Positions 8,927 through 25,815 of a stretch of DNA of 64,000 nt are shown piece after piece. The notes beneath the pieces are model-generated. The model was not told the DNA's origin and did no database searches. It worked only from the letters and a program-made list of their open reading frames with translations. Numbering within the stretch: position 1 is the first letter of the stretch; the number at the start of each line of letters is the position of its first letter. Both the position numbers and the translations under genes were made by a program. Source of the DNA: Thermodesulfobacteriota bacterium. Its GTDB lineage: Bacteria > Desulfobacterota > Binatia > UBA9968 > JAJDTQ01. The stretch covers positions 4,866,534 through 4,930,533 of the forward strand of contig OZ220712.1 in assembly GCA_965116735.1 (NCBI GenBank). Reading direction: 5' to 3'.

Positions 8927-10727
8927 CAAACTTGCTCCTCGACGATCTTCCTGAGCTCCTCGGGCATCTCCGGCAGGGTCTCGAGGAGACCGAGATGGTT
9001 CCGTTCTGCTTGCGCGTAACCACGTTGACGCTGCCGTACTTGGGGTCGGGGTCGGGGTAGTCGTCCCGGGTGTGGCCGCCGCGGCTTTCCTTGCACTCAA
9101 GGGCCGACAGGGTGGCGGCCTCGGCCACGGCCAACAGGTTGCGCAGGTCCAGCGCCAGGTGCCAGCCGGGGTTGAAGCGCCGGCCGCCCTCGACCTTCAC
9201 CCGCTCCGCCCGGTCCTTGTACGCCGCGACCTCCTCCATCGCCTTCAGCATCTCGCTCTCGGTGCGGATGATGCCGACGAGGTTGTGCATGGTGCGCTGG
9301 AGGTCCATGTGGATGGCGTAGGGGTTCTCGTCGCCGCGGTCGGTGAAGGGCTCCAGCATCAGCGTCGTGATCCGGTCCACTTCGGCCGGATCGGCCTTTG
9401 CCGCCGCCTCCGCGCCCAGGGCGTAGTCCGCGGCCGATTCACCGGCGATACGTCCGAACACCAGCAGGTCGGACAGGGAGTTGCCGCCGAGCCGGTTGGC
9501 GCCGTGCAGCCCGCCGGCCACCTCACCCGCGGCGTACAGGCCCGGCACCGCGGTGGCGGAGGTGTCCGCGTCCACCCGGACGCCGCCCATGATGTAGTGG
9601 CAGGTTGGCCCCACCTCCATGGCTTCCTTGGTGATGTCCACGTCCGCCAGCTCCTTGAACTGGTGGTACATGGACGGCAGCCGCCGCATGATGTACTCCG
9701 AGTCGCGGCGGTTGGCGATGTCCAGGTAGACGCCGCCGTGCTCCGTCCCGCGGCCGGCCTTGACCTCGGAGTTGATGGCCCTGGCCACTTCATCCCGGGG
9801 CAGCAGGTCCGGGGTGCGGCGGTTGTTCTTCTTGTCCTGGTACCACGCGTCCGCCTCGGCCTCGTTGTCGGCGGTCTCCGCCTTGAAGAACTCCGGGATG
9901 TAGTTGAACATGAAGCGTTCGCCCTCGGAGTTGAGCAACGTGCCGCCGTCGCCGCGCACGCCCTCGGTCACCAGGATGCCGCGCACGCTGGGGGGCCAGA
10001 CCATGCCGGTGGGGTGGAACTGCACCTTCTCCATGTCGATGAGGTCGGCGCCCACCTCCATCGCCATGCCCATGCCGTCGCCGCTGTATTCCCAGGAATT
10101 GGAGGTCACCTGCCAGCACTTGCCGGAGCCGCCGGTGGCCAGCACCACGGCCTTGCAGTTGAACACGATCAGCTCGCCGCTCTCGCGCCAATAGCCCACC
10201 GCCCCGCTCACCCGGCCGTCGTTCATCAGCAGGTGCTGGATGTTGCACTCCATGTAGACGTCGATGCCCAGCGCCACGGCGCGCTGCTGGAGCGTGCGGA
10301 TCATTTCCAGGCCGGTGCGGTCGCCCACGTGCGCCAGCCGCGCGTAGCGATGGCCGCCGAAGTCGCGTTGCAGGATCAGCCCCTCGTCGGTGCGGTCGAA
10401 CAGCGCGCCCCATTCCTCCAACTCCAGCACCCGGTCGGGGGCCTGCTGGGCGTGGATCTGCGCCATGCGCCAGTTGTTCAGGAGCTTGCCGCCGCGCATG
10501 GTGTCGCGGAAGTGGACCTTCCAGTTGTCCTCCGGCCAGACGTTCCCCATGGCCGCGGCGATGCCGCCCTCGGCCATGACCGTGTGGGCCTTGCCCAGCA
10601 GCGACTTGCAGATGATGGCGGTCCTGCAGCCCTTGTCGTGGGCCTCGATGCCGGCCCGCAACCCGGCGCCGCCGGCCCCCACCACCACCACGTCGTAGTC
10701 GTGCGTCTCGTAGCTCTCCCCGGCCAT
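8919..10727 (-). CDS. sdhA: succinate dehydrogenase/fumarate reductase flavoprotein subunit (covalent-FAD type)
   Basis: DVVVVGAGGAGLRAG dinucleotide-binding motif, covalent-FAD His in GKAHTVMAEGG, HYIMGG and ESRGGHTRDDYP. The last ~20 codons as called look out of frame (see findings). Confidence 0.85.
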   Translation of the reverse strand: MAGESYETHDYDVVVVGAGGAGLRAGIEAHDKGCRTAIICKSLLGKAHTVMAEGGIAAAMGNVWPEDNWKVHFRDTMRGGKLLNNWRMAQIHAQQAPDRVLELEEWGALFDRTDEGLILQRDFGGHRYARLAHVGDRTGLEMIRTLQQRAVALGIDVYMECNIQHLLMNDGRVSGAVGYWRESGELIVFNCKAVVLATGGSGKCWQVTSNSWEYSGDGMGMAMEVGADLIDMEKVQFHPTGMVWPPSVRGILVTEGVRGDGGTLLNSEGERFMFNYIPEFFKAETADNEAEADAWYQDKKNNRRTPDLLPRDEVARAINSEVKAGRGTEHGGVYLDIANRRDSEYIMRRLPSMYHQFKELADVDITKEAMEVGPTCHYIMGGVRVDADTSATAVPGLYAAGEVAGGLHGANRLGGNSLSDLLVFGRIAGESAADYALGAEAAAKADPAEVDRITTLMLEPFTDRGDENPYAIHMDLQRTMHNLVGIIRTESEMLKAMEEVAAYKDRAERVKVEGGRRFNPGWHLALDLRNLLAVAEAATLSALECKESRGGHTRDDYPDPDPKYGSVNVVTRKQNGTISVSSRPCRRCPRSSGRSSRSKFDV

Positions 10728-15422: not shown

Positions 15423-15475
15423 GCGTCGCGTCCACGCACCGCTGTCGCGGCCTTCGCGGCTTCCGGGCCGGTGGC

Positions 15476-16198
15476 GTGCAGGCGGCCGATGCGCTATGCC
15501 GGAAGGCCATGGAACGGGACTCCCTGGCGCGCGTCAACCGGGCGGCAATCCGCTGCCGAAAGTGCCCCCGGCTGGTGGCTTGGCGGGCCGAAACCGCCGC
15601 CAATCCGCCGCGCCGCTATCATGGCTACAAGTACTGGGGCCGGCCGCTTCCCGGCTTCGGCGACGGCGACGCGAGGCTCCTGATCGTGGGTCTGGCGCCC
15701 GCCGCTCACGGCGGCAACCGCACCGGCCGGATGTTCACCGGAGACCGCAGCGGCGACTGGCTCTACCGCGCGCTCTACGAGCACGGCTTCGCCAACCAGG
15801 CCGAGTCCGTGGACCGCGACGACGGCCTGGAACTCACCGACTGCTACATCTCCGCCGCGGTCCGCTGCGCGCCCCCCGCCAACAAGCCCGCCCGCGACGA
15901 GTTCGACAACTGTCGCGGCTACCTGGTCCGCGACCTCCGGCTGCTCCCGCGTCTACGGGTGGTTCTCGCGCTGGGCAAGATCGCCTTCGACTCCTACCTC
16001 AAGGCTGCGGCCGAGGCAGGGCAACCGATCCCCCGGCCCCGCCCGCAATTCGGCCACGGCATCCGCCACGACCTCGACAACGGCTTGACCCTTCTGGGCT
16101 CCTACCACCCCAGCCAGCAGAACACCTTCACCGGCAAGCTCACTGTGCCCATGTTCCACGACATCTTTCGCACGGCCCGGGAACTTCTGGACGGCTAG
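15476..16198 (+). CDS. uracil-DNA glycosylase, family 4/5 (UdgB-like)
   Basis: Cys-rich N-terminus (CRKCPRL) and GLAPAAHGGNRTGRMFTGD motif A. HPS..N motif B is near the C-terminus. Confidence 0.75.
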   Translation: MQAADALCRKAMERDSLARVNRAAIRCRKCPRLVAWRAETAANPPRRYHGYKYWGRPLPGFGDGDARLLIVGLAPAAHGGNRTGRMFTGDRSGDWLYRALYEHGFANQAESVDRDDGLELTDCYISAAVRCAPPANKPARDEFDNCRGYLVRDLRLLPRLRVVLALGKIAFDSYLKAAAEAGQPIPRPRPQFGHGIRHDLDNGLTLLGSYHPSQQNTFTGKLTVPMFHDIFRTARELLDG

Positions 16199-16298
16199 GG
16201 TACGATGTCGGGCTCGACCGGAGGATGCAGGAGAGCAAAAAGGGAGGCCGAAGGTGTCGTTTGCGGCGAATATGGCATTTATGTTAGATGAGTAAGCA

Positions 16299-16769
16299 TT
16301 GTCGTTGCCAATGGGAAATCGAGTCATGAAGGACGGAGAGACTAGGTTCGCGAGCGGCCGGGATGCAGTTCTTGCCGACCAGATCGGCAGGAAACTGGCA
16401 GAGTTGCCGGATGGGACTGAGCCGGTTCCGGTTCGATTTGGTGCGGCCGGCGAGGAAACGGTCGAGATTCCTGCCCAAGCGCTACGGCTTCTGCGGGAGA
16501 TTCTGGACCAGATGGCGCGTGGCAATACAGTTGCGTTGACACCGGTTCAGACCGAGTTGACCACACGGCAGGCGGCCGATCTCCTGCAGGTTTCGAGGAC
16601 GTTCCTGGTACGGCTGCTCGACGAGGGACGAATCCCATGCCGTAAGGTCGGCTCACATCGGCGTGTGCGGACCGAAGACATTCTCGCCTATCGTCGGGAT
16701 ACGGAATCTCGTCGTCGTGATGCGCTGGACGAGTTGACTGCCCAGGATCAGAGACTCGGCTTACAATAG
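16299..16769 (+). CDS. HTH_17 / excisionase-family DNA-binding protein (putative antitoxin)
   Basis: The C-terminal LTTRQAADLLQVSRTFLVRLLDEGRIPCRKVGSHRRV is a MerR/excisionase-type HTH. It lies 3 nt upstream of the PIN gene, in the low-GC island. Confidence 0.65.
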   Translation: MSLPMGNRVMKDGETRFASGRDAVLADQIGRKLAELPDGTEPVPVRFGAAGEETVEIPAQALRLLREILDQMARGNTVALTPVQTELTTRQAADLLQVSRTFLVRLLDEGRIPCRKVGSHRRVRTEDILAYRRDTESRRRDALDELTAQDQRLGLQ

Positions 16770-16772
16770 CCG

Positions 16773-17342
16773 ATGAACCGATTGACGGCGTTTCTCGACG
16801 CCAACGTCCTGTATCCCGCTGGCCTTCGAGACTTTCTCCTGCGGCTGGCGGATCAATACTTGTACCAACCGCTTTGGAGCGTCGCGATTCATGAAGAATG
16901 GATCGCCAACCTTCTCGCCGACCGGCCCGATCTCACAGTCGACAGGCTGGAGCGTACCCGTACAATCATGGACGAGCACTTTCCCGAGGCGGTCGTTTCC
17001 GGTTACGAAACTCTCATCGCGGAACTCGACCTCCCTGACGTCCGCGACCGTCATGTTCTGGCGGCGGCGATCCACGGTTGCGCCAGCGTAATCGTGACCT
17101 TCAACCTGCGGGATTTTCCCGCAGGCCGACTGGCGCCACATGGGCTAGACGCACAACATCCCGATGACTTCATTGGCCGTCTTCTCGAATCTCAGCCCGA
17201 AGCGGTTCTTGCTGCCGTCCGCGGCCATCGTGCCGCATTGAGGAACCCTCCGCGGTCATCGATAGAACATCTGGCTGCGCTTGAGGGACTGGGGCTCGGT
17301 CGAACGGCCTCAGTTCTCTGGAATCACAAGGATGTCATCTAG
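16773..17342 (+). CDS. PIN-domain protein (putative VapC-like toxin)
   Basis: Acidic PIN residues occur in LDANVLY, DRHVLAAAI and TFNLRDF. The gene is paired with the upstream HTH gene. Confidence 0.7.
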   Translation: MNRLTAFLDANVLYPAGLRDFLLRLADQYLYQPLWSVAIHEEWIANLLADRPDLTVDRLERTRTIMDEHFPEAVVSGYETLIAELDLPDVRDRHVLAAAIHGCASVIVTFNLRDFPAGRLAPHGLDAQHPDDFIGRLLESQPEAVLAAVRGHRAALRNPPRSSIEHLAALEGLGLGRTASVLWNHKDVI

Positions 17343-18531
17343 CGTTCAATCAGCGGACAGTGATGCAGGCGTTTCCTGCGTCTTGGACGTCTACCCCGAA
17401 GACACGTTGGATTACCTTGAAGAGGCTGTTTCTGCGGGACGTCATTTCTCATATGCGATTCCCTACGTTGCCGGCCAAACGATCAAGAAGCAACTCTGCC
17501 TGATTCAGGTGATCGGGTACGAATACATCGAGCGCCGGGTGTGGGGCTCACTTTACGCTTGTATCGCCGATTCTGGGCGCAGAGTTACAACGGCCCAACG
17601 TCATCTCACGCTGACCAACTTCGTCCGGGTCTCGGACGTTTCCTACAAGCAGTTGATGGAAAATATCCCGGAGAGCTCTGCTGAACACCTTCTTCGCGAC
17701 TTCGGGGTTGATTTCCGAACCCTTCCAGCGAAAACGGGTCAACAGGTATGGCGTGCTCTCAAAGACCTCAGCGGAAAGAGGGCTGAATTGGAGGAACTCG
17801 AAGTTCACACCCGCCGAATCAATCTCAATCCAGCCACGGAGCGGGCAGAAACGTTGGCCGCCGAGAAGGATGCCACTGGCCTTAGTCTAGAAATCGCCGG
17901 ATTCAAGAGAAGCAATATCCTTAGGAGTTGGGCACCTCAAGCCGGCAGGATTGGCGATTCCTTTCTTCGTGGATTGCCGCAGTACCGGACCTATGAGGAC
18001 AGCGCTATTGCACGCGATCAGCATGCCTTTCCGGGATGGGAGCTTATCCAGCACGAAGTCACCGGCATCGCCGAATTCAGCGATGACCAAAATAGGAGAC
18101 TGACCATTATCAATGCTAATCGAAATGACCTCGAAAAGGCACTCGGTGTCGACCTGATATATTTTCATCGTGGATTTGAGGCATTCACGTTTGTTCAGTA
18201 CAAGATGATGGACCGAAAAACCAAAGATGGTGAACCTTATCACAACCCAAGGTCACGCCAGGACTACAAAGAGCTCCAGAGAATGCGTCGCCTATGGCAC
18301 GGCGTCAGGAAGTCCAACGTCGGGGACTCGGAGCAGGACTATCGTCTTGGTCTTTGTCCGATCTTTTTCAAACTCTGTAGGCGAATTGTCCTTGAGCCGG
18401 ACGAAGGAGGGATCATCAGCGGGGCCTATGTTCCGCTGGACCAGTGGCAGAAACTGGTGATTTCGCCGAAAATCAAAGGCCCCACGGGGGGCGTCGTCTC
18501 GGGCATTTCAATCTCGAAGGCCGGTACCTGA
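17332..18531 (+). CDS. hypothetical protein with PD-(D/E)xK-like motif; probable frameshifted 3' end
   Basis: The 399-aa ORF overlaps the PIN gene stop by 11 nt, and GC is about 52%. The C-terminal region GVDLIYFHRGFEAFTFVQYK resembles a restriction-endonuclease-fold core. The reading frame appears to continue in a second frame (18444-18692) after a G6 run. Confidence 0.5.
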   Translation: MSSSVQSADSDAGVSCVLDVYPEDTLDYLEEAVSAGRHFSYAIPYVAGQTIKKQLCLIQVIGYEYIERRVWGSLYACIADSGRRVTTAQRHLTLTNFVRVSDVSYKQLMENIPESSAEHLLRDFGVDFRTLPAKTGQQVWRALKDLSGKRAELEELEVHTRRINLNPATERAETLAAEKDATGLSLEIAGFKRSNILRSWAPQAGRIGDSFLRGLPQYRTYEDSAIARDQHAFPGWELIQHEVTGIAEFSDDQNRRLTIINANRNDLEKALGVDLIYFHRGFEAFTFVQYKMMDRKTKDGEPYHNPRSRQDYKELQRMRRLWHGVRKSNVGDSEQDYRLGLCPIFFKLCRRIVLEPDEGGIISGAYVPLDQWQKLVISPKIKGPTGGVVSGISISKAGT

Positions 18532-18692
18532 CGACGACGGCATTCGTCGAACTCGTGCAACGGGGCTTGGTCGGCACAAAGACTCTAGACACCCAATTTG
18601 TAGCGGACATTGTGGAAAGACTGGTTGCCGAGGACCACTCCGTGATTTACGCAGTAGAACAACTAAGGAGCAGAGCCACGCGACGAAGTTGA
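18444..18692 (+). other. frame-shifted continuation (or overlapping small ORF) of the 399-aa hypothetical gene
   Basis: The frame has protein-like composition (FNLEGRYLTTTAFVELVQRGLVGTKTLDTQFVADIVERLVAEDHSVIYAVEQL). Adding one G to the G6 run at 18486-18491 would fuse it to the upstream ORF. Confidence 0.35.
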
Positions 18693-18797
18693 GGCACCCA
18701 CCGGCCGGGCGAAGTCGCGCGGATCCTTCGCCATGGGACGATGGGCGGGCTTCTGCTTCTTCTCGGGCTTTGGCATCGGCTCTCCTCTCATTGCTTC

Positions 18798-19127
18798 TTA
18801 GAGGGTGCCCTTGAAAATTTCGAGAGCTACTGCCTTTAGGACATCCATGGTCCAATTCCCTCCGTGCTGCGCGATTCGATCCTTCACCCTTGTCCACAGC
18901 CGATCATCGCGAACCGAATCAAGGAAGTCGTGGCCTTCGTTCGTAATCCGGAATGCGGTTTCTTTGACGGCGTGTAGAAGGCCCGCATCACACAGAAGTT
19001 GAACATGCTGCCAGCGTTTCTGGGCGACGGCGTCCATCCCAAGGGTGAGTCGTTCCACCACGAGGAAGGACGGTTCCGCCTCGTATTCAAGGAGGATTGT
19101 CCTCATGTAGTCAAGGTCGCGCTTCAT
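18798..19127 (-). CDS. DUF2513-like hypothetical protein
   Basis: The 109-aa product (MKRDLDYMRTILLEYEAE...NEGHDFLDSVRDDRLWTRVKDRI) lies 60 nt downstream of the XRE-type gene in the low-GC island. Confidence 0.45.
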   Translation of the reverse strand: MKRDLDYMRTILLEYEAEPSFLVVERLTLGMDAVAQKRWQHVQLLCDAGLLHAVKETAFRITNEGHDFLDSVRDDRLWTRVKDRIAQHGGNWTMDVLKAVALEIFKGTL

Positions 19128-19186
19128 ATCGTCATATCTGTCATGTCAGTGACTGCCTCAAGATCGTGCCATGAACCGCGCGCGGC

Positions 19187-19585
19187 TCAGATCAGATCAT
19201 CAAGCTCAACATCTAACGCTGTGGCGATAGAGGAGAGTGTTTTCGCCGACCCGGTTCGTTTGCCCGTCTCAATTTGCGAAAGGTACACGTGATTGATGCC
19301 TGCGGCCTCAGCGAGCTGCTTCTGGGTCAGGCGACGATAGTCCCGGTATACCCTGATGGGATTTTCCCCCGCCAACAGACGATCCACCACCGTGGCGGGA
19401 AACGACTCGCTTCCGGCAGACTTCGCGAGGTCGTAGAGTTCTTCGTCCGTCATTGCGCCTTCGTCGTCCATGGAAGCTAGTCGTTTGTACTCTCCCCACG
19501 GGATCACTGCGTATGCCGGCTTCCCGTTCTTGTCGACAATGACTTGGGGCTTGCTCACGGGGTTCTCCCTGGGCGCGTGTAGCAT
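19187..19585 (-). CDS. XRE-family HTH protein with N-terminal antitoxin-like domain
   Basis: The N-terminus QVIVDKNGKPAYAVIPWGEYKRL is antitoxin-like. The C-terminus LTQKQLAEAAGINHVYLSQIETGKR is an XRE HTH. Confidence 0.65.
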   Translation of the reverse strand: MLHAPRENPVSKPQVIVDKNGKPAYAVIPWGEYKRLASMDDEGAMTDEELYDLAKSAGSESFPATVVDRLLAGENPIRVYRDYRRLTQKQLAEAAGINHVYLSQIETGKRTGSAKTLSSIATALDVELDDLI

Positions 19586-19735
19586 TCAATCATCGAAATC
19601 GCGAGTGCTATACTTCATTTAGCGGGTTATATAGCAAAACGCTTTCATCGCGTCGAGCCGGTTCCAAGGCGGCGGGGTTGACTTGCTGTAGCCAATCGAC
19701 TACGCATTAGGCTTCATCCGTACTGGAGAGACGAA

Positions 19736-20020
19736 ATGTCCGCAAAAGAACACAAGGCGAGCGACTACCTCAAGACGCCCGAGGATATCGTTGCCTATCT
19801 GAACGCCGTGATCGAAGAGATGGGCGATGATCCGCGTCTGCTGATGAGGGCGTTTCGTAACGTGGCCGAGGCGCAGGGCGGCGTCTCCGCGCTCGCGCGT
19901 GAAGCCAAGCTGGACCGAGTGGCGCTGTCCCGTGCGCTCTCGGGCCAGAGAAATCCGCGGCTCGACACGCTCGCGAAGGTCTCCGCCGCGTACGGCGTCA
20001 AGTTGCGGTTTTCAACATGA
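19736..20020 (+). CDS. HigA-family addiction-module antidote protein (orphan)
   Basis: The 94-aa product (KTPEDIVAYLNAVIEE...PRLLMRAFRNVAEAQGGVSALAREAKLDRVALSRALSG) has the typical antidote fold. No cognate killer gene lies upstream. Confidence 0.6.
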   Translation: MSAKEHKASDYLKTPEDIVAYLNAVIEEMGDDPRLLMRAFRNVAEAQGGVSALAREAKLDRVALSRALSGQRNPRLDTLAKVSAAYGVKLRFST

Positions 20021-20118
20021 GGGTGAGTCGGTTTCTCGTCAACGACCGAAACGCTTGCGGTATGCACAATAGAGTTGCAATAAACCGTAACAGACGAATC
20101 CAAAGAGGAGGACTTGAT

Positions 20119-20412
20119 ATGTCCATCGTCAGATTGATCCACGTCAACGTCGACCCCGGCCAAGCCGCGGAGGCGGAGCGCATCTGGAAGGAGGATTGCG
20201 GCCCGCGGATGCTCGCTCAGCAGGGCTGCAAGTCCGAGCAATTGCTGAAGTGCATCGATTCCCCGGGGGAATACATCTCCTACGCCGAGTGGGAGAGTCA
20301 GGAAGACATCGACCGCTATCGCGACAGCGAGGACCACAAGGCGATCCAGACACATGCGCGCGCGCTTCAGGGCGCGCGGGCCGTGGTCAAGCGGTACGAT
20401 CCCATCGACTGA
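20119..20412 (+). CDS. antibiotic-biosynthesis-monooxygenase (ABM) domain protein
   Basis: The 97-aa product (MSIVRLIHVNVDPGQ...YISYAEWESQEDIDRYRDSEDHK) has the ABM fold pattern. A strong RBS aggagga lies 8 nt upstream. Confidence 0.7.
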   Translation: MSIVRLIHVNVDPGQAAEAERIWKEDCGPRMLAQQGCKSEQLLKCIDSPGEYISYAEWESQEDIDRYRDSEDHKAIQTHARALQGARAVVKRYDPID

Positions 20413-20456
20413 GTCTTTCTCGGAGGCAGGGATACTGAGTCATCGCTACCTGGTTC

Positions 20457-23378
20457 GTGACGGGGTGGCGGCGAGGAGCATTTCCCATGGCGCGTGAAGT
20501 GCAGGATTACCGGGAGACCGAGGCCGAGCTCCGCAAGCGGGTGGAGGGCGAGGTCCGGTTCGACCACTACTCGCGGCTGCTCTACGCCACCGACGCGTCC
20601 ATCTACCAGATGGAGCCCGTGGGCGTGGTCATTCCGCGGCACAAGGGCGATGTCCAGGCGGTCATGGAGGTGGCCAACCGGCACCGGGTGCCGGTGCTGG
20701 CCCGAGGCGGCGGCACTTCGCTGGCGGGCCAGACCGTGGGCCACGCCATCGTCATGGACTTCTCCAAGTACATGAACCAGGTGCTGGAGACGAACCGGGA
20801 GGAGCTCTGGTGCCGGGTCCAGCCCGGGCTCGTGCAGGACGCGCTGAACGCCCATGCCGCGCCCATGGGGATGCTCTTCGGTCCGGACACCTCCACCTCC
20901 AACCGCGCCACCATCGGCGGCATGATCGGCAACAACTCCGCCGGCGCCCATTCCGTCGTCTACGGCAAGACCCTGGACCACGTGCTGGAGTTGACGGTGC
21001 TCCTGGCGGACGGCAGCGAGGCGGTGCTGACGGACCTCTCGGCGGACGGGCTCGCAGCCAGGCAGGGAGGGAAGGGGCTGGAAAACCGCATCTACCAGCA
21101 GCTCCCGCCGCTGGTGGAATCCGCCGGCAGGCTCATCGCGGAGCGCTACCCCAAGCTCATGCGGAGGGTGTCGGGCTACAACCTCGACGAGTTCACCAAG
21201 GACCAGCCGTTCAACCTCTCGCGCTTGATCGTGGGCTCCGAGGGCACCCTGGCGTGCGTGGTGGAAGCCAAGATGCGGCTGGTGCCCAAGCCGAAGTTCA
21301 CCGCGCTGGACGTCATCCACTTCCACGACCTCCAGGACGCGCTGGGGGTGTCGGAAACCATCCTCGCCACCGACCCCTACGCCATGGAGCTGACCGACAA
21401 GCCCATCCTGGACCTGGCGCGCAACAACATCGAGCAGTCCAAGCGGCTGGGCTTCGTGCAGGGCGACCCCGACGCCATCCTGATGGTGGAGTACGACGGC
21501 GACACCCTCGAGGAGGTCCGCGACAAGGTCGACAAGCTGGAGGTGATCCGCCGGCGCGAGCACATGGGCTATGCCGCCTCCCTCGCCTACGAGCCGCGGG
21601 AGGTGCAGGCGATCTGGGGCGTGCGCAAGGCCGGCCTGGGGCTCCTGCTGGGCGTCAAGGGAGAGAAGAAGCCCATCGCTTTCGTCGAGGACACCGCGGT
21701 GGACCCGGTCAAGCTACCCGAGTTCATCAAGCGTTTCCGCGGCATCCTCAGCAGCCACGGCGTCCGCGCCGGCTACTACGGCCACTGCTCCGTGGGCTGC
21801 ATGCACATCCGCCCCTTCATCAACCTCAAGGAAGCCGGCGAGGTGGAGAAGATGACGCAGATCTCATGCGAGATCTCGGACCTGGTGATGGAGTTCGGCG
21901 GCGCCATGTCCGGCGAGCACGGCGACGGACTGGCCCGGAGCCACCTGAACGAGAAGCTCTTCGGCCCCGAGCTGTACCAGGAGTTCCGCAAGGTCAAGCG
22001 GCTGTTCGACCCGGACAACCTGCTCAACCCCGGCAAGATCGTGGACGCGCCGGCCATGACCGATTCGCTCCGCTACGGCACTTCCTACAAGACCTGGCAG
22101 CCCGACACCATGCTGGACTTCAGCGACCAGGGCGGCTTCGTGGCCGCGGTGGAGATGTGCAACGGCACCGGCGCCTGCCGCAAGACCCTGGGCGGCACCA
22201 TGTGCCCGTCGTACATGGCCACGATGGAGGAGGAGCACTCCACCCGCGGGCGCGCCACCGCGTTCCGGGCCGTGCTCTCCGGCAAGGTGCCCCGTTCGGA
22301 GTTCACCGGCGAGCGGCTCCACGAGGTGCTGGACCTCTGCCTCGAGTGCAAGGGCTGCAAGGCCGAGTGCCCGTCCAACGTGGACATGGCCAAGCTCAAG
22401 TACGAGTTCCTGCACCACTACCAGCAGGTCCACGGCGTCTCGCTTCGGAGCCGCCTGTTCGGCCGCATCGGCGCCCTGAGCCGCTGGGGCTCGCTGCTGG
22501 CGCCGGTCGCGAACCGGATCAACGGCAGCTTCGCCAACCGCTGGCTTCTGGACCGCTTCCTGGGTATTGACCGCAGGCGCCCGCTGCCGAGCTTCGCGCG
22601 CAACAACTTCGAGACATGGTGGAACAAGCGCGATGCCGCGGGAAGCGGCGCCCGCGGCTCGGTGATCCTGTTCCACGACACCTTCAACACCTACAACACG
22701 CCCGACGTGGCGGTGGCGGCCACCCGCCTGCTGGAGTATCTCGGCTACCGGGTGATGACCGTGCCGCGGCGCTGCTGCGGCCGCCCGATGATCTCCAAGG
22801 GCATGCTTCAGGACGCCAAGGACCACGCCGCCTGGAATGTCGCCCGGCTGCTGCCCCACGTGGAGCAGGGAGTGCGGGTGGTGGGCCTGGAGCCCTCCTG
22901 CATCCTGACGCTCCGGGACGAGTACCCCGACCTTCTGCGCAACGAGCCGTCGCGCATGGTGGCGGGCCACACGCTGCTCATCGAGGAGTTGTTGATGCGG
23001 GACGAGGCGGCGGGCGCGTTGAAGAACGGCGACGCCGCCAGGCCGCCGGTGGTGCTGCACGGCCACTGCCACCAGAAGGCGCTGGTGGGCATGGCGCCCA
23101 CGGTCTCGGTGCTGCGGGAAGCGGGCCACGACGTGCGCGAGGTGGATTCCGGCTGCTGCGGCATGGCCGGCTCCTTCGGCTTCGAGAAGGAGCACTACGA
23201 CGTGTCCGTGGCCATCGCCAACCGCCGCCTGGTGCCGGCGGTGGAGGCCGCGCCCGAGGACGCGCGCGTGGTGGCGTCGGGAATCTCCTGCCGGCAGCAG
23301 ATCGAGCACCTCACCGGGCGCCGGGCGCTCCATCCGGTGGAGGTGCTGTGGGAAGACGTCCGGGAAGCCGAGGGCTGA
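20457..23378 (+). CDS. FAD-linked oxidase fused to Fe-S/CCG domains (YdiJ-like dehydrogenase)
   Basis: N-terminal FAD-binding PCMH domain (RGGGTSLAGQ), a C-terminal 4Fe-4S dicluster motif (CxxCxxC...CP) and CCG domains. The ORF is 973 aa; the likely start is MAREVQ at about 20487. Confidence 0.8.
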   Translation: MTGWRRGAFPMAREVQDYRETEAELRKRVEGEVRFDHYSRLLYATDASIYQMEPVGVVIPRHKGDVQAVMEVANRHRVPVLARGGGTSLAGQTVGHAIVMDFSKYMNQVLETNREELWCRVQPGLVQDALNAHAAPMGMLFGPDTSTSNRATIGGMIGNNSAGAHSVVYGKTLDHVLELTVLLADGSEAVLTDLSADGLAARQGGKGLENRIYQQLPPLVESAGRLIAERYPKLMRRVSGYNLDEFTKDQPFNLSRLIVGSEGTLACVVEAKMRLVPKPKFTALDVIHFHDLQDALGVSETILATDPYAMELTDKPILDLARNNIEQSKRLGFVQGDPDAILMVEYDGDTLEEVRDKVDKLEVIRRREHMGYAASLAYEPREVQAIWGVRKAGLGLLLGVKGEKKPIAFVEDTAVDPVKLPEFIKRFRGILSSHGVRAGYYGHCSVGCMHIRPFINLKEAGEVEKMTQISCEISDLVMEFGGAMSGEHGDGLARSHLNEKLFGPELYQEFRKVKRLFDPDNLLNPGKIVDAPAMTDSLRYGTSYKTWQPDTMLDFSDQGGFVAAVEMCNGTGACRKTLGGTMCPSYMATMEEEHSTRGRATAFRAVLSGKVPRSEFTGERLHEVLDLCLECKGCKAECPSNVDMAKLKYEFLHHYQQVHGVSLRSRLFGRIGALSRWGSLLAPVANRINGSFANRWLLDRFLGIDRRRPLPSFARNNFETWWNKRDAAGSGARGSVILFHDTFNTYNTPDVAVAATRLLEYLGYRVMTVPRRCCGRPMISKGMLQDAKDHAAWNVARLLPHVEQGVRVVGLEPSCILTLRDEYPDLLRNEPSRMVAGHTLLIEELLMRDEAAGALKNGDAARPPVVLHGHCHQKALVGMAPTVSVLREAGHDVREVDSGCCGMAGSFGFEKEHYDVSVAIANRRLVPAVEAAPEDARVVASGISCRQQIEHLTGRRALHPVEVLWEDVREAEG

Positions 23379-23385
23379 GGCGGTC

Positions 23386-24609
23386 ATGGGCAGGATCGCG
23401 GCGTTACGCTGTCCGCAGTGCGGCTGGGAGGCGGTAACCGACGACACCTTCGCGTGCGGCTCCTGCGGGGCCGTGCTGGAGGTCCGCATGGACCTCGGAC
23501 ATCTCACCCGCTCTGACGTACGCATCATCCGCTCCAGCGCCGACAAAACCCTGTGGCGCTGGTTCGACTTCTTTCCAGTCAAGAGCCGCGGCTCGGTGGT
23601 GTCCCTGGGCGAGGGCTATACGCCGCTCATGCGTTGCCGGCGCCTGGGCGAGCACCTGGGGATGGAACGGCTCTACGTCAAGAACGACACGCTCCTGCCC
23701 ACGGGCTCCCTCAAGGACCGCAGTAACAGCGTGGGCATCTCCCGCGCGGTGGAGCTGGGCTTCGACACCGTGGCGGTGCCGTCCACCGGCAACGCCGCCG
23801 CGTCGGTGGCCGCCTACGCCGCGGCCGCGGGTTTACGCAGCGTCGTCATGGTGCCGGCCGGCACCGATGCGGCCAAGGTGACCCAGGCCTATGCCTGCGG
23901 CGCCGAGGTGGTGACGGTGGAGGGAAGTCTCGACGAGATCGGGCCGTTCTACCGGGAGGCGGTCAAGGAGTTCGGCTGGTACGATTGTCTGTCCACCAAC
24001 CCGTACCGCAACGAGGGCAAGAAGTCCTACGCCTTCGAGTTGTTCGATCAACTGGAAGAGCACGTGCCCAATTGGATCATCCACCCTACCGCCGGCGGGG
24101 CCGGCCTCGTGGCCATGTGGAAGGGCTACCAGGAGTTGCAAGGCCTCGGCTGGGTGCACCGGTTTCCCAGGCTGGTGGCGGCCCAGAGCGAGGCCGCGGC
24201 CCCCATCACGGCGGCGTTGAACACCAACAGCGCCACGGTGGAGCCGGTGGCAGCGGGCGCCACGGTGGCGGAGAGTATCCGGGTGGGCAACCCGCATGCG
24301 CTGGGGCTGCGCGCCCTGCGCGCGGTGCGGGCCAGCAACGGCACCGGCGTGGCGCTGACGGACGGTGAGACCCTCGAGGCCCGGGACCTGCTGGGGCGTT
24401 TGGCCGGAGTGTTCGCCGAGCCCTCGGCCGCGGTGTCGCTGGCCGCGGCGGCGCGGCTGCGCCGCGAGGGCGTTATCCGCGCCGACGACATGGTCGTGTG
24501 CAACATCACCGGCCACGGCCTCAAGCAGGTCGCCAGCGTCACTATTCCACCGGAGCAACTGCAACCGGTTGAGCCGAGCCTGGACGCCTTGAAGGCGCGG
24601 CTCGGGTGA
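23386..24609 (+). CDS. threonine synthase-like PLP enzyme with N-terminal zinc ribbon
   Basis: N-terminal CPQCGW...CGSCG zinc ribbon. The PLP lysine lies in TGSLKDR, and the fold is TrpB-like. Confidence 0.8.
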   Translation: MGRIAALRCPQCGWEAVTDDTFACGSCGAVLEVRMDLGHLTRSDVRIIRSSADKTLWRWFDFFPVKSRGSVVSLGEGYTPLMRCRRLGEHLGMERLYVKNDTLLPTGSLKDRSNSVGISRAVELGFDTVAVPSTGNAAASVAAYAAAAGLRSVVMVPAGTDAAKVTQAYACGAEVVTVEGSLDEIGPFYREAVKEFGWYDCLSTNPYRNEGKKSYAFELFDQLEEHVPNWIIHPTAGGAGLVAMWKGYQELQGLGWVHRFPRLVAAQSEAAAPITAALNTNSATVEPVAAGATVAESIRVGNPHALGLRALRAVRASNGTGVALTDGETLEARDLLGRLAGVFAEPSAAVSLAAAARLRREGVIRADDMVVCNITGHGLKQVASVTIPPEQLQPVEPSLDALKARLG

Positions 24610-24774
24610 ACGAGGACACGGTTCGGAAATGACTTGGCGCCTTGGACAAGACATTTCCGTTCGCCCTGAGCCCTTCGACGAGGCTCAGGACAGGCGTAGC
24701 GAAGCGAAGTCGAAGAGCGCCGTTTCCAGCTCACCTCATGCGGGATCAGGAATGTCGGAAAGCGAAGGACAGCC

Positions 24775-25815
24775 ATGAAGTTCGGATACTACCTGCTCAA
24801 CACCTACGTTCCCGAGCTGGACGGAGATTCGCGCGAACTCTATGCCCGCTGGCTGGAGCAGATCGACGCCGCCGAGGAAATGGGCTTCGACAGCCTCTGG
24901 GTTACCGAGCACCACTTCCGGCTGTTCGGCGGCATGATGCCCAGTCCGCAGATGCTTCTGTCGGCGGCGTCGCAACGCACCCGGCGGCTCCAACTCGGCT
25001 CGGCGGTCTCGCTGGTGCCCATGCACCACCCGCTGCAGATCGCTGAGGACTACGCCATGCTGGACCTCCTGTCCGGCGGGCGTCTGCTCTTCGGCGCCGG
25101 CCGGGGCATGAGCCCCCACGAGTACGAGGTGTATGGACACGACTGGCCTACCGCGCAGCCGCGGCTGGTGGAGGCACTGGACGTCATCCGCATGGCCTGG
25201 ACCGAGGAGACCGTGGAGTGGGACGGGGAGTTCTTCAGCTACCACGGCATGACCGTCCGGCCCAGGCCGCACCAGCAGCCCCATCCGCCCATCTACGTGC
25301 CCGCCAACCGGGACCTCGACAACTTCCGCATGATCGGAAGCCACGGCTACCACCTCATGACCCTGCCGTGGATCGGCAGCAACCAGGAGCAGCGTCCGCG
25401 CATCGAGGTCTACCTGGAAAGCCTGCGGGAAGCGGGCTACTCCGAGGAAGACCACGACGTCTTCGTCATGTACCCGATCTACGTGGGCGAGGACGACGAC
25501 CGGGCTCGCGCCGAGGTGGAGGACGCCTGGCACCGTTGGCGCGAGTTCGCCCTCGACGAGGTCCGCCTCGACCCCGCCCGCGCGCCCATGGTGGACAGGA
25601 TCTACGGGCGCCTGGCCTACGACATGATGGTGCAGGACAACCGCGGCGTCTTCGGCGGCCCCGACACCTGCATCCAGCACCTCAAGGTCATCATCGATGT
25701 CGTCGGCCCCAAACACATCGGACTGTGCTTCCACTTCGGCGGCCTCAAGCAGGACAAGGTCCTCGCCTCCATGGAGCGCTTCAGCCGCCACGTGGCGCCG
25801 GCGTTCGAGGTCTAG
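24775..25815 (+). CDS. LLM-class (luciferase-like) flavin/F420-dependent oxidoreductase
   Basis: The 346-aa product has FDSLWVTEHH near the N-terminus and a TIM-barrel LLM pattern. Confidence 0.8.
   Translation: MKFGYYLLNTYVPELDGDSRELYARWLEQIDAAEEMGFDSLWVTEHHFRLFGGMMPSPQMLLSAASQRTRRLQLGSAVSLVPMHHPLQIAEDYAMLDLLSGGRLLFGAGRGMSPHEYEVYGHDWPTAQPRLVEALDVIRMAWTEETVEWDGEFFSYHGMTVRPRPHQQPHPPIYVPANRDLDNFRMIGSHGYHLMTLPWIGSNQEQRPRIEVYLESLREAGYSEEDHDVFVMYPIYVGEDDDRARAEVEDAWHRWREFALDEVRLDPARAPMVDRIYGRLAYDMMVQDNRGVFGGPDTCIQHLKVIIDVVGPKHIGLCFHFGGLKQDKVLASMERFSRHVAPAFEV

Follow-up and report, generated by a model that had tools for sequence, protein, structure and literature searches.

A 64,000-nucleotide (nt) stretch of DNA from a Thermodesulfobacteriota bacterium (contig OZ220712.1; hereafter the window) carries three tightly packed genes on one strand, encoding a helix-turn-helix (HTH) protein, a PIN-domain protein, and a third protein, here called X. 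The explanation that we favour, with moderate confidence, is that the locus joins two separable modules in one cassette: a VapBC50-like pair (HTH–PIN) and a captured single-protein candidate type IV (modification-dependent) restriction nuclease (X). Judging from the distribution of homologues, the three-gene arrangement appears to be a clade-specific juxtaposition, and an obligate tripartite system is not supported.

All positions refer to the window, for which the list of open reading frames (ORFs) and the raw sequence were read directly. The three ORFs lie on the plus strand at 16299–16769 (HTH), 16773–17342 (PIN), and 17332–18531 (the third ORF, 399 amino acids [aa] from its ATG). The HTH stop codon (TAG, 16767–16769) is followed after 3 nt by the PIN ATG at 16773. 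The ATG of the third gene at 17332 lies inside the PIN ORF, whose stop codon (TAG) is at 17340–17342, giving an overlap of 11 nt (17332–17342). This spacing had been described in an earlier reading of the same stretch (the original prediction), and our direct reading agrees with it in both junctions. That these genes make up a single, closely packed transcription unit is supported for this lineage. The features of the locus are as follows.

16255–16325, plus strand: putative promoter/operator of the HTH–PIN operon, the conserved upstream region of the cassette; homology among the window and the related loci L007, L001, and L008 begins at GTGTCGTTTGCGGCGAATATGGCATTTATGTTAGAT
16326–16769, plus strand: HTH_17/excisionase-family DNA-binding protein, the antitoxin-like partner (VapB50-like), from matches to HTH_17 and TIGR01764
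16773–17342, plus strand: PIN-domain protein (PIN_3 and VapC50_C type), a predicted toxin RNase, from a match to PIN_3
17332–18692, plus strand: third gene X, a predicted EVE-like/PD-(D/E)xK protein of 453 codons interrupted by a frameshift, from 453-aa homologues and tblastn
17332–17751, plus strand: N-terminal PUA-superfamily (EVE-like) domain of X, a putative modified-base reader, from the predicted structure
18052–18381, plus strand: predicted PD-(D/E)xK nuclease core of X, residues 241–350, with the motif G272-V-D274-L-I-Y...V-Q289-Y-K291 at 18145–18204
18480–18483, plus strand: frameshift site, a run of four C against five in relatives (1-nt deletion), from DNA alignment with L001, L007, and L008 and the frame switch in tblastn

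The HTH protein matched Pfam HTH_17 (E 5.7e-13) and TIGR01764 "excise" (excisionase family DNA-binding; E 1.5e-12) over residues 87–133 of the 156-aa ORF. Because the HTH genes of relatives are called as 147 aa, which corresponds to the in-frame ATG at 16326, this ATG is the most likely start according to the comparison, with TTG at 16299 as the alternative. The N-terminal ~85 residues (16299–16580) matched no family, yet they are conserved in the 147–152-aa partners of related PIN proteins; this half of the protein possibly binds the toxin. The PIN protein matched Pfam PIN_3 (E 9.8e-07) above the gathering score. It also matched NCBIfam NF046100 (RSP_2648-family PIN, equivalog) with an E of 1.7e-41 and 142.1 bits, below the curated cut-off of 170, and is a related subfamily, not a member of that family. 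The acidic residues D9, E41/E42, D92, and D114 were read directly in the PIN sequence, and their catalytic assignment is by analogy, with no structural alignment.

The PIN family is very large (5,409 clusters at E ≤ 1e-5), and all 120 of the homologues listed are ~189 aa and carry PF13470 and PF26343 (VapC50_C). Around the PIN relatives at 70–81% identity (L095, L096, L097–L100, L103–L107, and L108, in five different neighbourhoods), an HTH_17 gene of 147–152 aa ended exactly 3 nt upstream, and the third gene was absent in every one examined. Since the pair is kept at the 3-nt spacing without X across neighbourhoods, HTH–PIN appears to be an ordinary, self-contained VapBC50-like type II toxin-antitoxin-like pair. 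It has the same Pfam domains and the same gene order as VapBC50 (Rv3750c–Rv3749c), of which Rv3750c is presumably an excisionase-type HTH protein, and in every relative examined, too, the HTH gene stops 3 nt short of a PIN gene of 189 aa. The window differs from VapBC50 in having a third gene that starts ahead of the PIN stop codon and runs across it.

The third ORF as called is incomplete. Its closest homologues, P0001 (93% identity) and P0002 (90%), are 453 aa each and have the sequence GPRGGRRLGHF...SRATRRS spanning the end of the window ORF. In a tblastn comparison of P0001 with the window, residues 1–387 matched in frame 1 (17332–18492) and residues 384–453 in frame 3 (18480–18689), and in a DNA alignment one base was missing from the C run of the window (GG-CCCC at 18480–18483 versus GGCCCCC in L001, L007, and L008). 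Because of the frame switch and the missing C, the 399-aa ORF and an 82-aa ORF (18444–18692) are regarded as a single gene (17332–18692) with an intact length of 453 codons. The original prediction had given the protein 399 aa, or 450 aa once repaired; the need for a repair stands, but the intact length is 453 aa, and the position of the frameshift had been overlooked, as had the EVE-like domain at the N-terminus. The frameshift truncates X after about residue 385, with the loss of the last ~68 residues, and X in the window is either an inactive pseudogene or the product of a homopolymer assembly error. X of another relative, L087, also switches frame in tblastn, near residue 49; the contigs of several relatives come from assemblies of 2–3x coverage. 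HTH and PIN are intact in the window and in L087, though X is frameshifted in both.

HTH–PIN–X was present in the window, L007, L001, and L008 (X 89–93% identical), L087 (77–80%), and L088 (74%), the identities of the last two being those given by tblastn. When the window HTH and PIN were compared by tblastn with 86 X loci, matches were obtained only in L001, L007, and L008. The trio is limited to one narrow clade in which X is at least 70% identical (L001, L007, L008, L087, and L088); HTH–PIN was missing from the X homologues of 57–59% identity, from ~80 further genome loci, and from 10 plasmids. The original prediction had proposed a tripartite toxin or abortive-infection module and had named homologues never found beside HTH–PIN as one outcome that would speak against it. 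The distribution comes close to that outcome: five relatives keep the pair beside X, ~80 loci and 10 plasmids lack it, and no co-occurrence of X with the pair was found across diverged lineages, as would mark a three-component system. With the association confined to this clade, the proposal of such a module is not supported.

The tight packing was kept in all six trio carriers; since these are close relatives (76–94% nt identity), its conservation is largely by descent. By blastn, L007 was syntenic with the window across 15467–25000 except for a 375-nt indel, and L001, L008, and L087/L088 shared with the window only 16242/16325–18697. On the left, homology began at the conserved motif upstream of HTH, and on the right it ended ~6 nt past the X stop codon. 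These ends delimit a mobile 2.45-kb cassette (promoter region, HTH, PIN, and X), which was found in four chromosomal contexts. Behind the cassette in L001 come an IS3-type transposase fragment (HTH_Tnp_1; 9370–9597) and a second, unrelated PIN_3 gene (10127–10588).

L103–L107 lie at the same chromosomal locus as L087/L088, with HhH-GPD and GT2 genes on one side and NMO and hydantoinase genes on the other. They carry an HTH–PIN pair 81% identical to that of the window and, 571 nt behind it, an unrelated 310-aa ORF; X is entirely missing. The 310-aa ORF of L103 was ruled out as a decayed X (BLASTP E 1.2, no tblastn match). This natural swap between L103–L107 and L087/L088 suggests that the position behind the pair is a slot for variable cargo. 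A DNA glycosylase gene adjoins the cassette in two unrelated contexts, a family-4 uracil-DNA glycosylase (UDG) gene in the window (15476–16198) and L007, and an HhH-GPD gene in L087/L088. Since L103–L107 have HhH-GPD and HTH–PIN without X, the glycosylase is considered part of the host locus and not of the cassette, and the adjacency is probably a coincidence. The features concerned are as follows.

L103 5141–6073 (also in L104–L106): 310-aa ORF behind HTH–PIN, without a Pfam match, occupying the slot of X in L087/L088
L087 1624–2577: HhH-GPD gene
L088 2656–3615: HhH-GPD gene
L103 2000–2953: HhH-GPD gene

X belongs to a large and widely spread family. A word-indexed search gave 41 X clusters, and an exhaustive profile search returned 1,933 representatives at E ≤ 0.001 and 1,021 at E ≤ 1e-30 (50%-identity clusters), almost all of 410–480 aa and aligned end to end. 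A genome scan gave 203 X loci in many phyla, including Bacteroidota, Planctomycetota, Acidobacteriota, Actinomycetota, Chloroflexota, Cyanobacteria, Desulfobacterota-like metagenome-assembled genomes (MAGs), and one archaeal MAG. The original prediction had suggested examining the conservation of the gene neighbourhood. In all-against-all BLAST of six-frame ORFs within 4 kb at 86 loci, no conserved neighbour at all was found; the ORF clusters occurring at several loci consisted of X itself, antisense ORFs inside X, and sets from closely related genomes only. Relaxed BLAST among the immediate same-strand neighbours revealed no shared partner. Upstream ORFs of 240–310 aa, considered as a hidden partner family, had no mutual similarity and matched unrelated Pfam families.

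In a Pfam scan of 46 upstream and 55 downstream same-strand neighbours of X, the families were heterogeneous and almost each occurred once. They included type I restriction-modification (R-M) subunits, Wadjet JetD, AbiEii, HEPN, a pPIWI-associated nuclease, CHAT, TIR, SIR2, AAA_15, Mrr_cat with IrrE, serine recombinases, and transposases. A methyltransferase stood beside X once, as a type I HsdM/HsdS set, among the 101 same-strand adjacent ORFs (immediate neighbours only), and no cognate methyltransferase was present in the window cassette. X homologues were found on 10 plasmids (five of them conjugative), where all were annotated as "hypothetical protein" and had as neighbours type IV coupling protein (T4CP) genes, an ATPase and UvrD pair, a RES–Xre pair, and a DUF6119 gene. 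The Bacteroidota homologues lie in islands resembling conjugative elements, with nSTAND and KAP NTPases. The lack of a conserved neighbour, together with the defence and plasmid contexts, indicates that X is a solitary gene travelling in defence and mobile-element islands.

In L089, a 57%-identical X homologue (262–1608) shares 4 nt with the end of a type I R-subunit gene (2–265; EcoEI_R_C, 2.1e-16) and is followed by a HEPN/DUF4145 gene (1703–2335). The partial upstream ORF had been considered as a PIN gene and turned out to be the C-terminus of the type I R subunit. The order type I R subunit–X–HEPN may be another recurring association of the X family. In L090, an unrelated ORF lies 247 nt upstream of the X homologue.

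The original prediction had stated that the third protein belongs to no family recognisable from its sequence, and our searches gave the same answer. X, represented by the window protein and ORF 18444–18692, had no match in Pfam, NCBIfam, or PADLOC, and the intact homologue P0001 had none in PHROGs. A lenient Pfam scan of 36 X members gave nothing at E up to 10, including EVE (PF01878), ASCH (PF04266), YTH (PF04146), and Mrr_cat (PF04471). The X profile compared with all PDB sequences gave only chance matches to ribosomal L4 (E about 0.5), and a Foldseek search of the X model against PDB gave nothing significant. Since the sequence-profile and Foldseek PDB searches found nothing, the fold assignment of X is structural and depends on predicted models.

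We used the AlphaFold2 model of P0001 (predicted local distance difference test [pLDDT] 77.5; predicted template modelling score [pTM] 0.71), which consists of a beta-rich N-domain (residues 14–130), a helical linker of ~100 residues (133–240), and an alpha/beta C-terminal part. On the nuclease side, the structural matches of X were Hjc, RecU, and homing and restriction endonucleases, with NgoMIV, NhoI, PvuII, and DpnI at lower Z; the C-terminal core of the predicted model resembles Hjc, RecU, and I-Ssp6803I. On the reader side, the matches were modified-base readers of the PUA superfamily, including YTH domains and ASCH. According to the models, the N-domain has a PUA-superfamily (EVE-like) fold and the C-terminal part a PD-(D/E)xK nuclease fold.

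The original prediction had pointed to a nuclease-fold-like pattern in the C-terminal region, in the peptide GVDLIYFHRGFEAFTFVQYK, which is encoded at 18145–18204 within the third ORF. This pattern was recovered in the model of P0001, where D274 precedes strand 275–279 and Q289-Y-K291 lies in the next strand (284–292), a placement that corresponds to the geometry of a PD-(D/E)xK hairpin. Invariant columns were listed from an alignment of 36 diverse full-length X homologues (A1) and comprise E222, D229, L257, N263, E268, G272, D274, L275, Y277, Q289, Y290, K291, R338, K347, G364, F405, and G415; D274, Q289, and K291 of the hairpin are thus all among them. The two ends of the protein evolve differently. 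The N-domain is the fastest-evolving part, with a mean pairwise identity of 21% and not one column reaching 90% conservation among the 36 homologues, and the nuclease core is the most conserved part, with a mean pairwise identity of 43% and 17 columns at or above that level. A variable N-domain together with a conserved core fits a protein whose sensor varies while its catalytic module stays the same, and the EVE-like reader domain predicted here shifts the likely function of X to modification-dependent restriction. With its predicted domains, X resembles the MspJI/AspBHI/LpnPI family of type IV enzymes, which are single proteins of ~450 aa with an N-terminal PUA/SRA-like domain binding modified cytosine and a C-terminal nuclease of the PD-(D/E)xK type.

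Modification-dependent enzymes combining a PUA-superfamily domain with a PD-(D/E)XK or HNH nuclease are known (PMC6765204), and the architecture of an N-terminal PUA-superfamily sensor and a C-terminal nuclease without a methyltransferase has been used to discover such enzymes (Lutz et al. 2019, PMC6765204). EVE-PD(D/E)XK type IV enzymes with fast-evolving EVE domains have also been catalogued (Bell, Wolf & Koonin 2020, PMC7641849). Like the EVE-HNH enzymes (VcaM4I/TspA15I), the EVE-DUF3427-PD-(D/E)XK enzyme YenY4I, and predicted EVE-PD(D/E)XK proteins (PMC6765204, PMC7897488, PMC7641849), X would carry both domains on one chain, the PUA-like/EVE-like domain at the N-terminus and the nuclease at the C-terminus. 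With the PUA-superfamily restriction enzymes, it shares the lack of an adjacent methyltransferase, the fast-evolving reader, and the occurrence in defence-island and mobile contexts. It differs from them in that it has no detectable sequence similarity to EVE, ASCH, YTH, or nuclease families, its putative reader has no conserved pocket residues, and its activity is predicted only. In contrast to the EVE-HNH enzymes, its predicted catalytic domain is a PD-(D/E)xK domain of the D...QxK variant and not HNH; in contrast to the YenY4I type, it has the ~100-residue helical linker in place of DUF3427. X represents a new sequence family, which none of the four hidden Markov model (HMM) libraries searched contains, within an already known class of defence enzymes to which it is predicted to belong.

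In the explanation that we favour, the operator would be bound by the HTH protein, which would also neutralise the PIN toxin, and the PIN_3/VapC50_C protein would be an Mg-dependent RNase. The EVE-like PUA-superfamily domain of X would recognise a modified base in incoming DNA, the helical linker (residues about 133–240) would join this reader to the C-terminal nuclease, and the PD-(D/E)xK domain, with D274, Q289, and K291 and the conserved E222 and E268, would cut the DNA, which would give X a role against phages. The X gene was probably captured directly behind the PIN gene in one deltaproteobacterial lineage, where it would be translationally coupled via the 11-nt overlap and expressed from the autoregulated promoter of the pair, and the cassette afterwards moved from one chromosomal site to another.

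Several observations weigh against this explanation. X has no sequence-level tie to EVE, ASCH, YTH, Mrr, or any nuclease family. Since no residue is conserved in the N-domain, no common base-binding pocket is apparent there, in contrast to the EVE and SRA domains described previously (PMC6765204). The lack of a conserved column may mean that specificities differ within the family or that there is no pocket. The predicted catalytic triad carries Q where D/E is expected (D...QxK), and the conserved loops 222–229 and 264–268 were modelled at pLDDT < 50. The D...QxK variant also occurs in Mrr-type enzymes; this is a lead only, as the Mrr_cat HMM does not match X. The cassette is intact in four contexts with an overlapping stop and start, and this is compatible with functional coupling of the genes. 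As to the pair, Rv3749c, the only VapC50 for which an experimental test was found, was non-toxic in Escherichia coli (PMC5175181); the toxin role of PIN is therefore a prediction. The antitoxin function of HTH is likewise predicted.

The coupling of the genes could mean that they form an integrated toxin or abortive-infection system, in which HTH keeps both enzymes, the PIN RNase and the PD-(D/E)xK nuclease, controlled and neutralised, and none of the three proteins works without the others. The 3-nt gap and the 11-nt overlap are in keeping with this, as is the fact that the unit common to the four chromosomal contexts extends from the promoter region to a point 6 nt beyond the stop codon of X. 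Predicted toxin-antitoxin operons of the (PIN)-GNAT-EVE/ASCH/HTH type also bring a PIN RNase, an HTH protein, and a PUA-like modified-base reader into one locus (PMC7641849). However, in those operons EVE is joined to a GNAT acetyltransferase and the combination is kept in many genomes, whereas in the window the putative reader is fused to a nuclease, GNAT is absent, and the association with HTH–PIN occurs in one narrow clade with X at least 70% identical. The X homologues of 57–59% identity and about 90 other loci and plasmids do without HTH–PIN, the PIN relatives at 70–81% identity do without X, and the L103–L107 allele of the L087/L088 locus keeps HTH–PIN with an unrelated downstream ORF. 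Moreover, X is frameshifted in the window and L087 with HTH and PIN intact. We therefore regard an integrated system as unlikely. Distinctly unlikely, too, is that the capture is functional and gives a two-layer defence, with HTH repressing one promoter for both effectors and the pair acting as the switch of a type IV enzyme. Infection would then disturb the antitoxin and thereby yield more of the modification-dependent DNase as a first line that spares the host, and freed PIN RNase as a back-up growth arrest, the 11-nt overlap fixing the ratio of PIN to nuclease.

The same domains could be read as acting on RNA, X being a YTH/ASCH-like reader of modified RNA with an RNase of the PD-(D/E)xK fold that acts together with the PIN RNase against RNA of the host or of a phage. 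The adjoining gene is indeed a predicted PIN RNase, and some type IV-like systems (CoCoNuTs) are predicted to target RNA (PMC11090510). However, the nuclease-side structural matches are DNA enzymes (Hjc, RecU, and homing and restriction endonucleases), and the surroundings of X abound in defence genes aimed at DNA, type I R-M and Wadjet JetD among them, which makes action on RNA very unlikely. The resemblance to Hjc and RecU leads to a further reading, in which X is a structure-specific nuclease with a lesion-reading domain that serves DNA repair or recombination and not defence. The DNA glycosylase genes beside the cassette (family-4 UDG in the window and L007, HhH-GPD in L087/L088/L103) would suit such an enzyme. 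Nevertheless, X is patchily distributed, lies in a low-GC island in the window, occurs on plasmids and beside conjugation genes, defence genes, and recombinases, and has no conserved repair-gene neighbour, and the HhH-GPD gene of L103–L107 is present without X as part of the host locus. There is very little likelihood that X is a repair enzyme.

The cassette lies in a region of low guanine-plus-cytosine (GC) content (16200–20400; 51–60% GC versus 66–72% in the surroundings). A scan for sigma-70 consensus promoters gave no site upstream of the HTH gene, and a terminator scan gave no excess. Two pairs of direct repeats (15918–15934/20445–20461 and 16013–16028/20423–20438) were considered as att sites or island boundaries; they are short, imperfect, and non-colinear, and are most likely due to chance. 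Directly past the X stop codon lies a DUF2513 gene (18798–19127, minus strand; Pfam 1.7e-14; PHROG 585, 1.2e-17), and the 375-nt indel (18737–19111) at the right edge of the cassette leaves the otherwise syntenic L007 without this gene. The island also encodes an XRE-family HTH protein with a weakly Phd-like N-terminus (19187–19585, minus strand). An apparently orphan "addiction module antidote" gene of the HigA/HI1420 type (19736–20020, plus strand) had no toxin gene in the ~150 nt upstream, and it is followed by an ABM-domain gene (20017–20412).

No model in Pfam, NCBIfam, PADLOC, or PHROGs recognises the X family, whose members all bore the name "hypothetical protein" where a source name was seen; its predicted identity as an EVE-like reader with a PD-(D/E)xK nuclease provides a concrete candidate function, the restriction of DNA containing modified bases. 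The locus also gives a caution, namely that tight operon packing in one clade, even with cassette mobility, does not prove a multi-component system. If the pair did control X in a two-layer defence, this would be a case of a type IV restriction enzyme switched by a regulatory pair of the VapBC type. If X is a modification-dependent restriction nuclease, the modification-dependent enzymes that serve as tools for epigenome mapping would gain a new sequence family, and the annotation of defence islands would improve.

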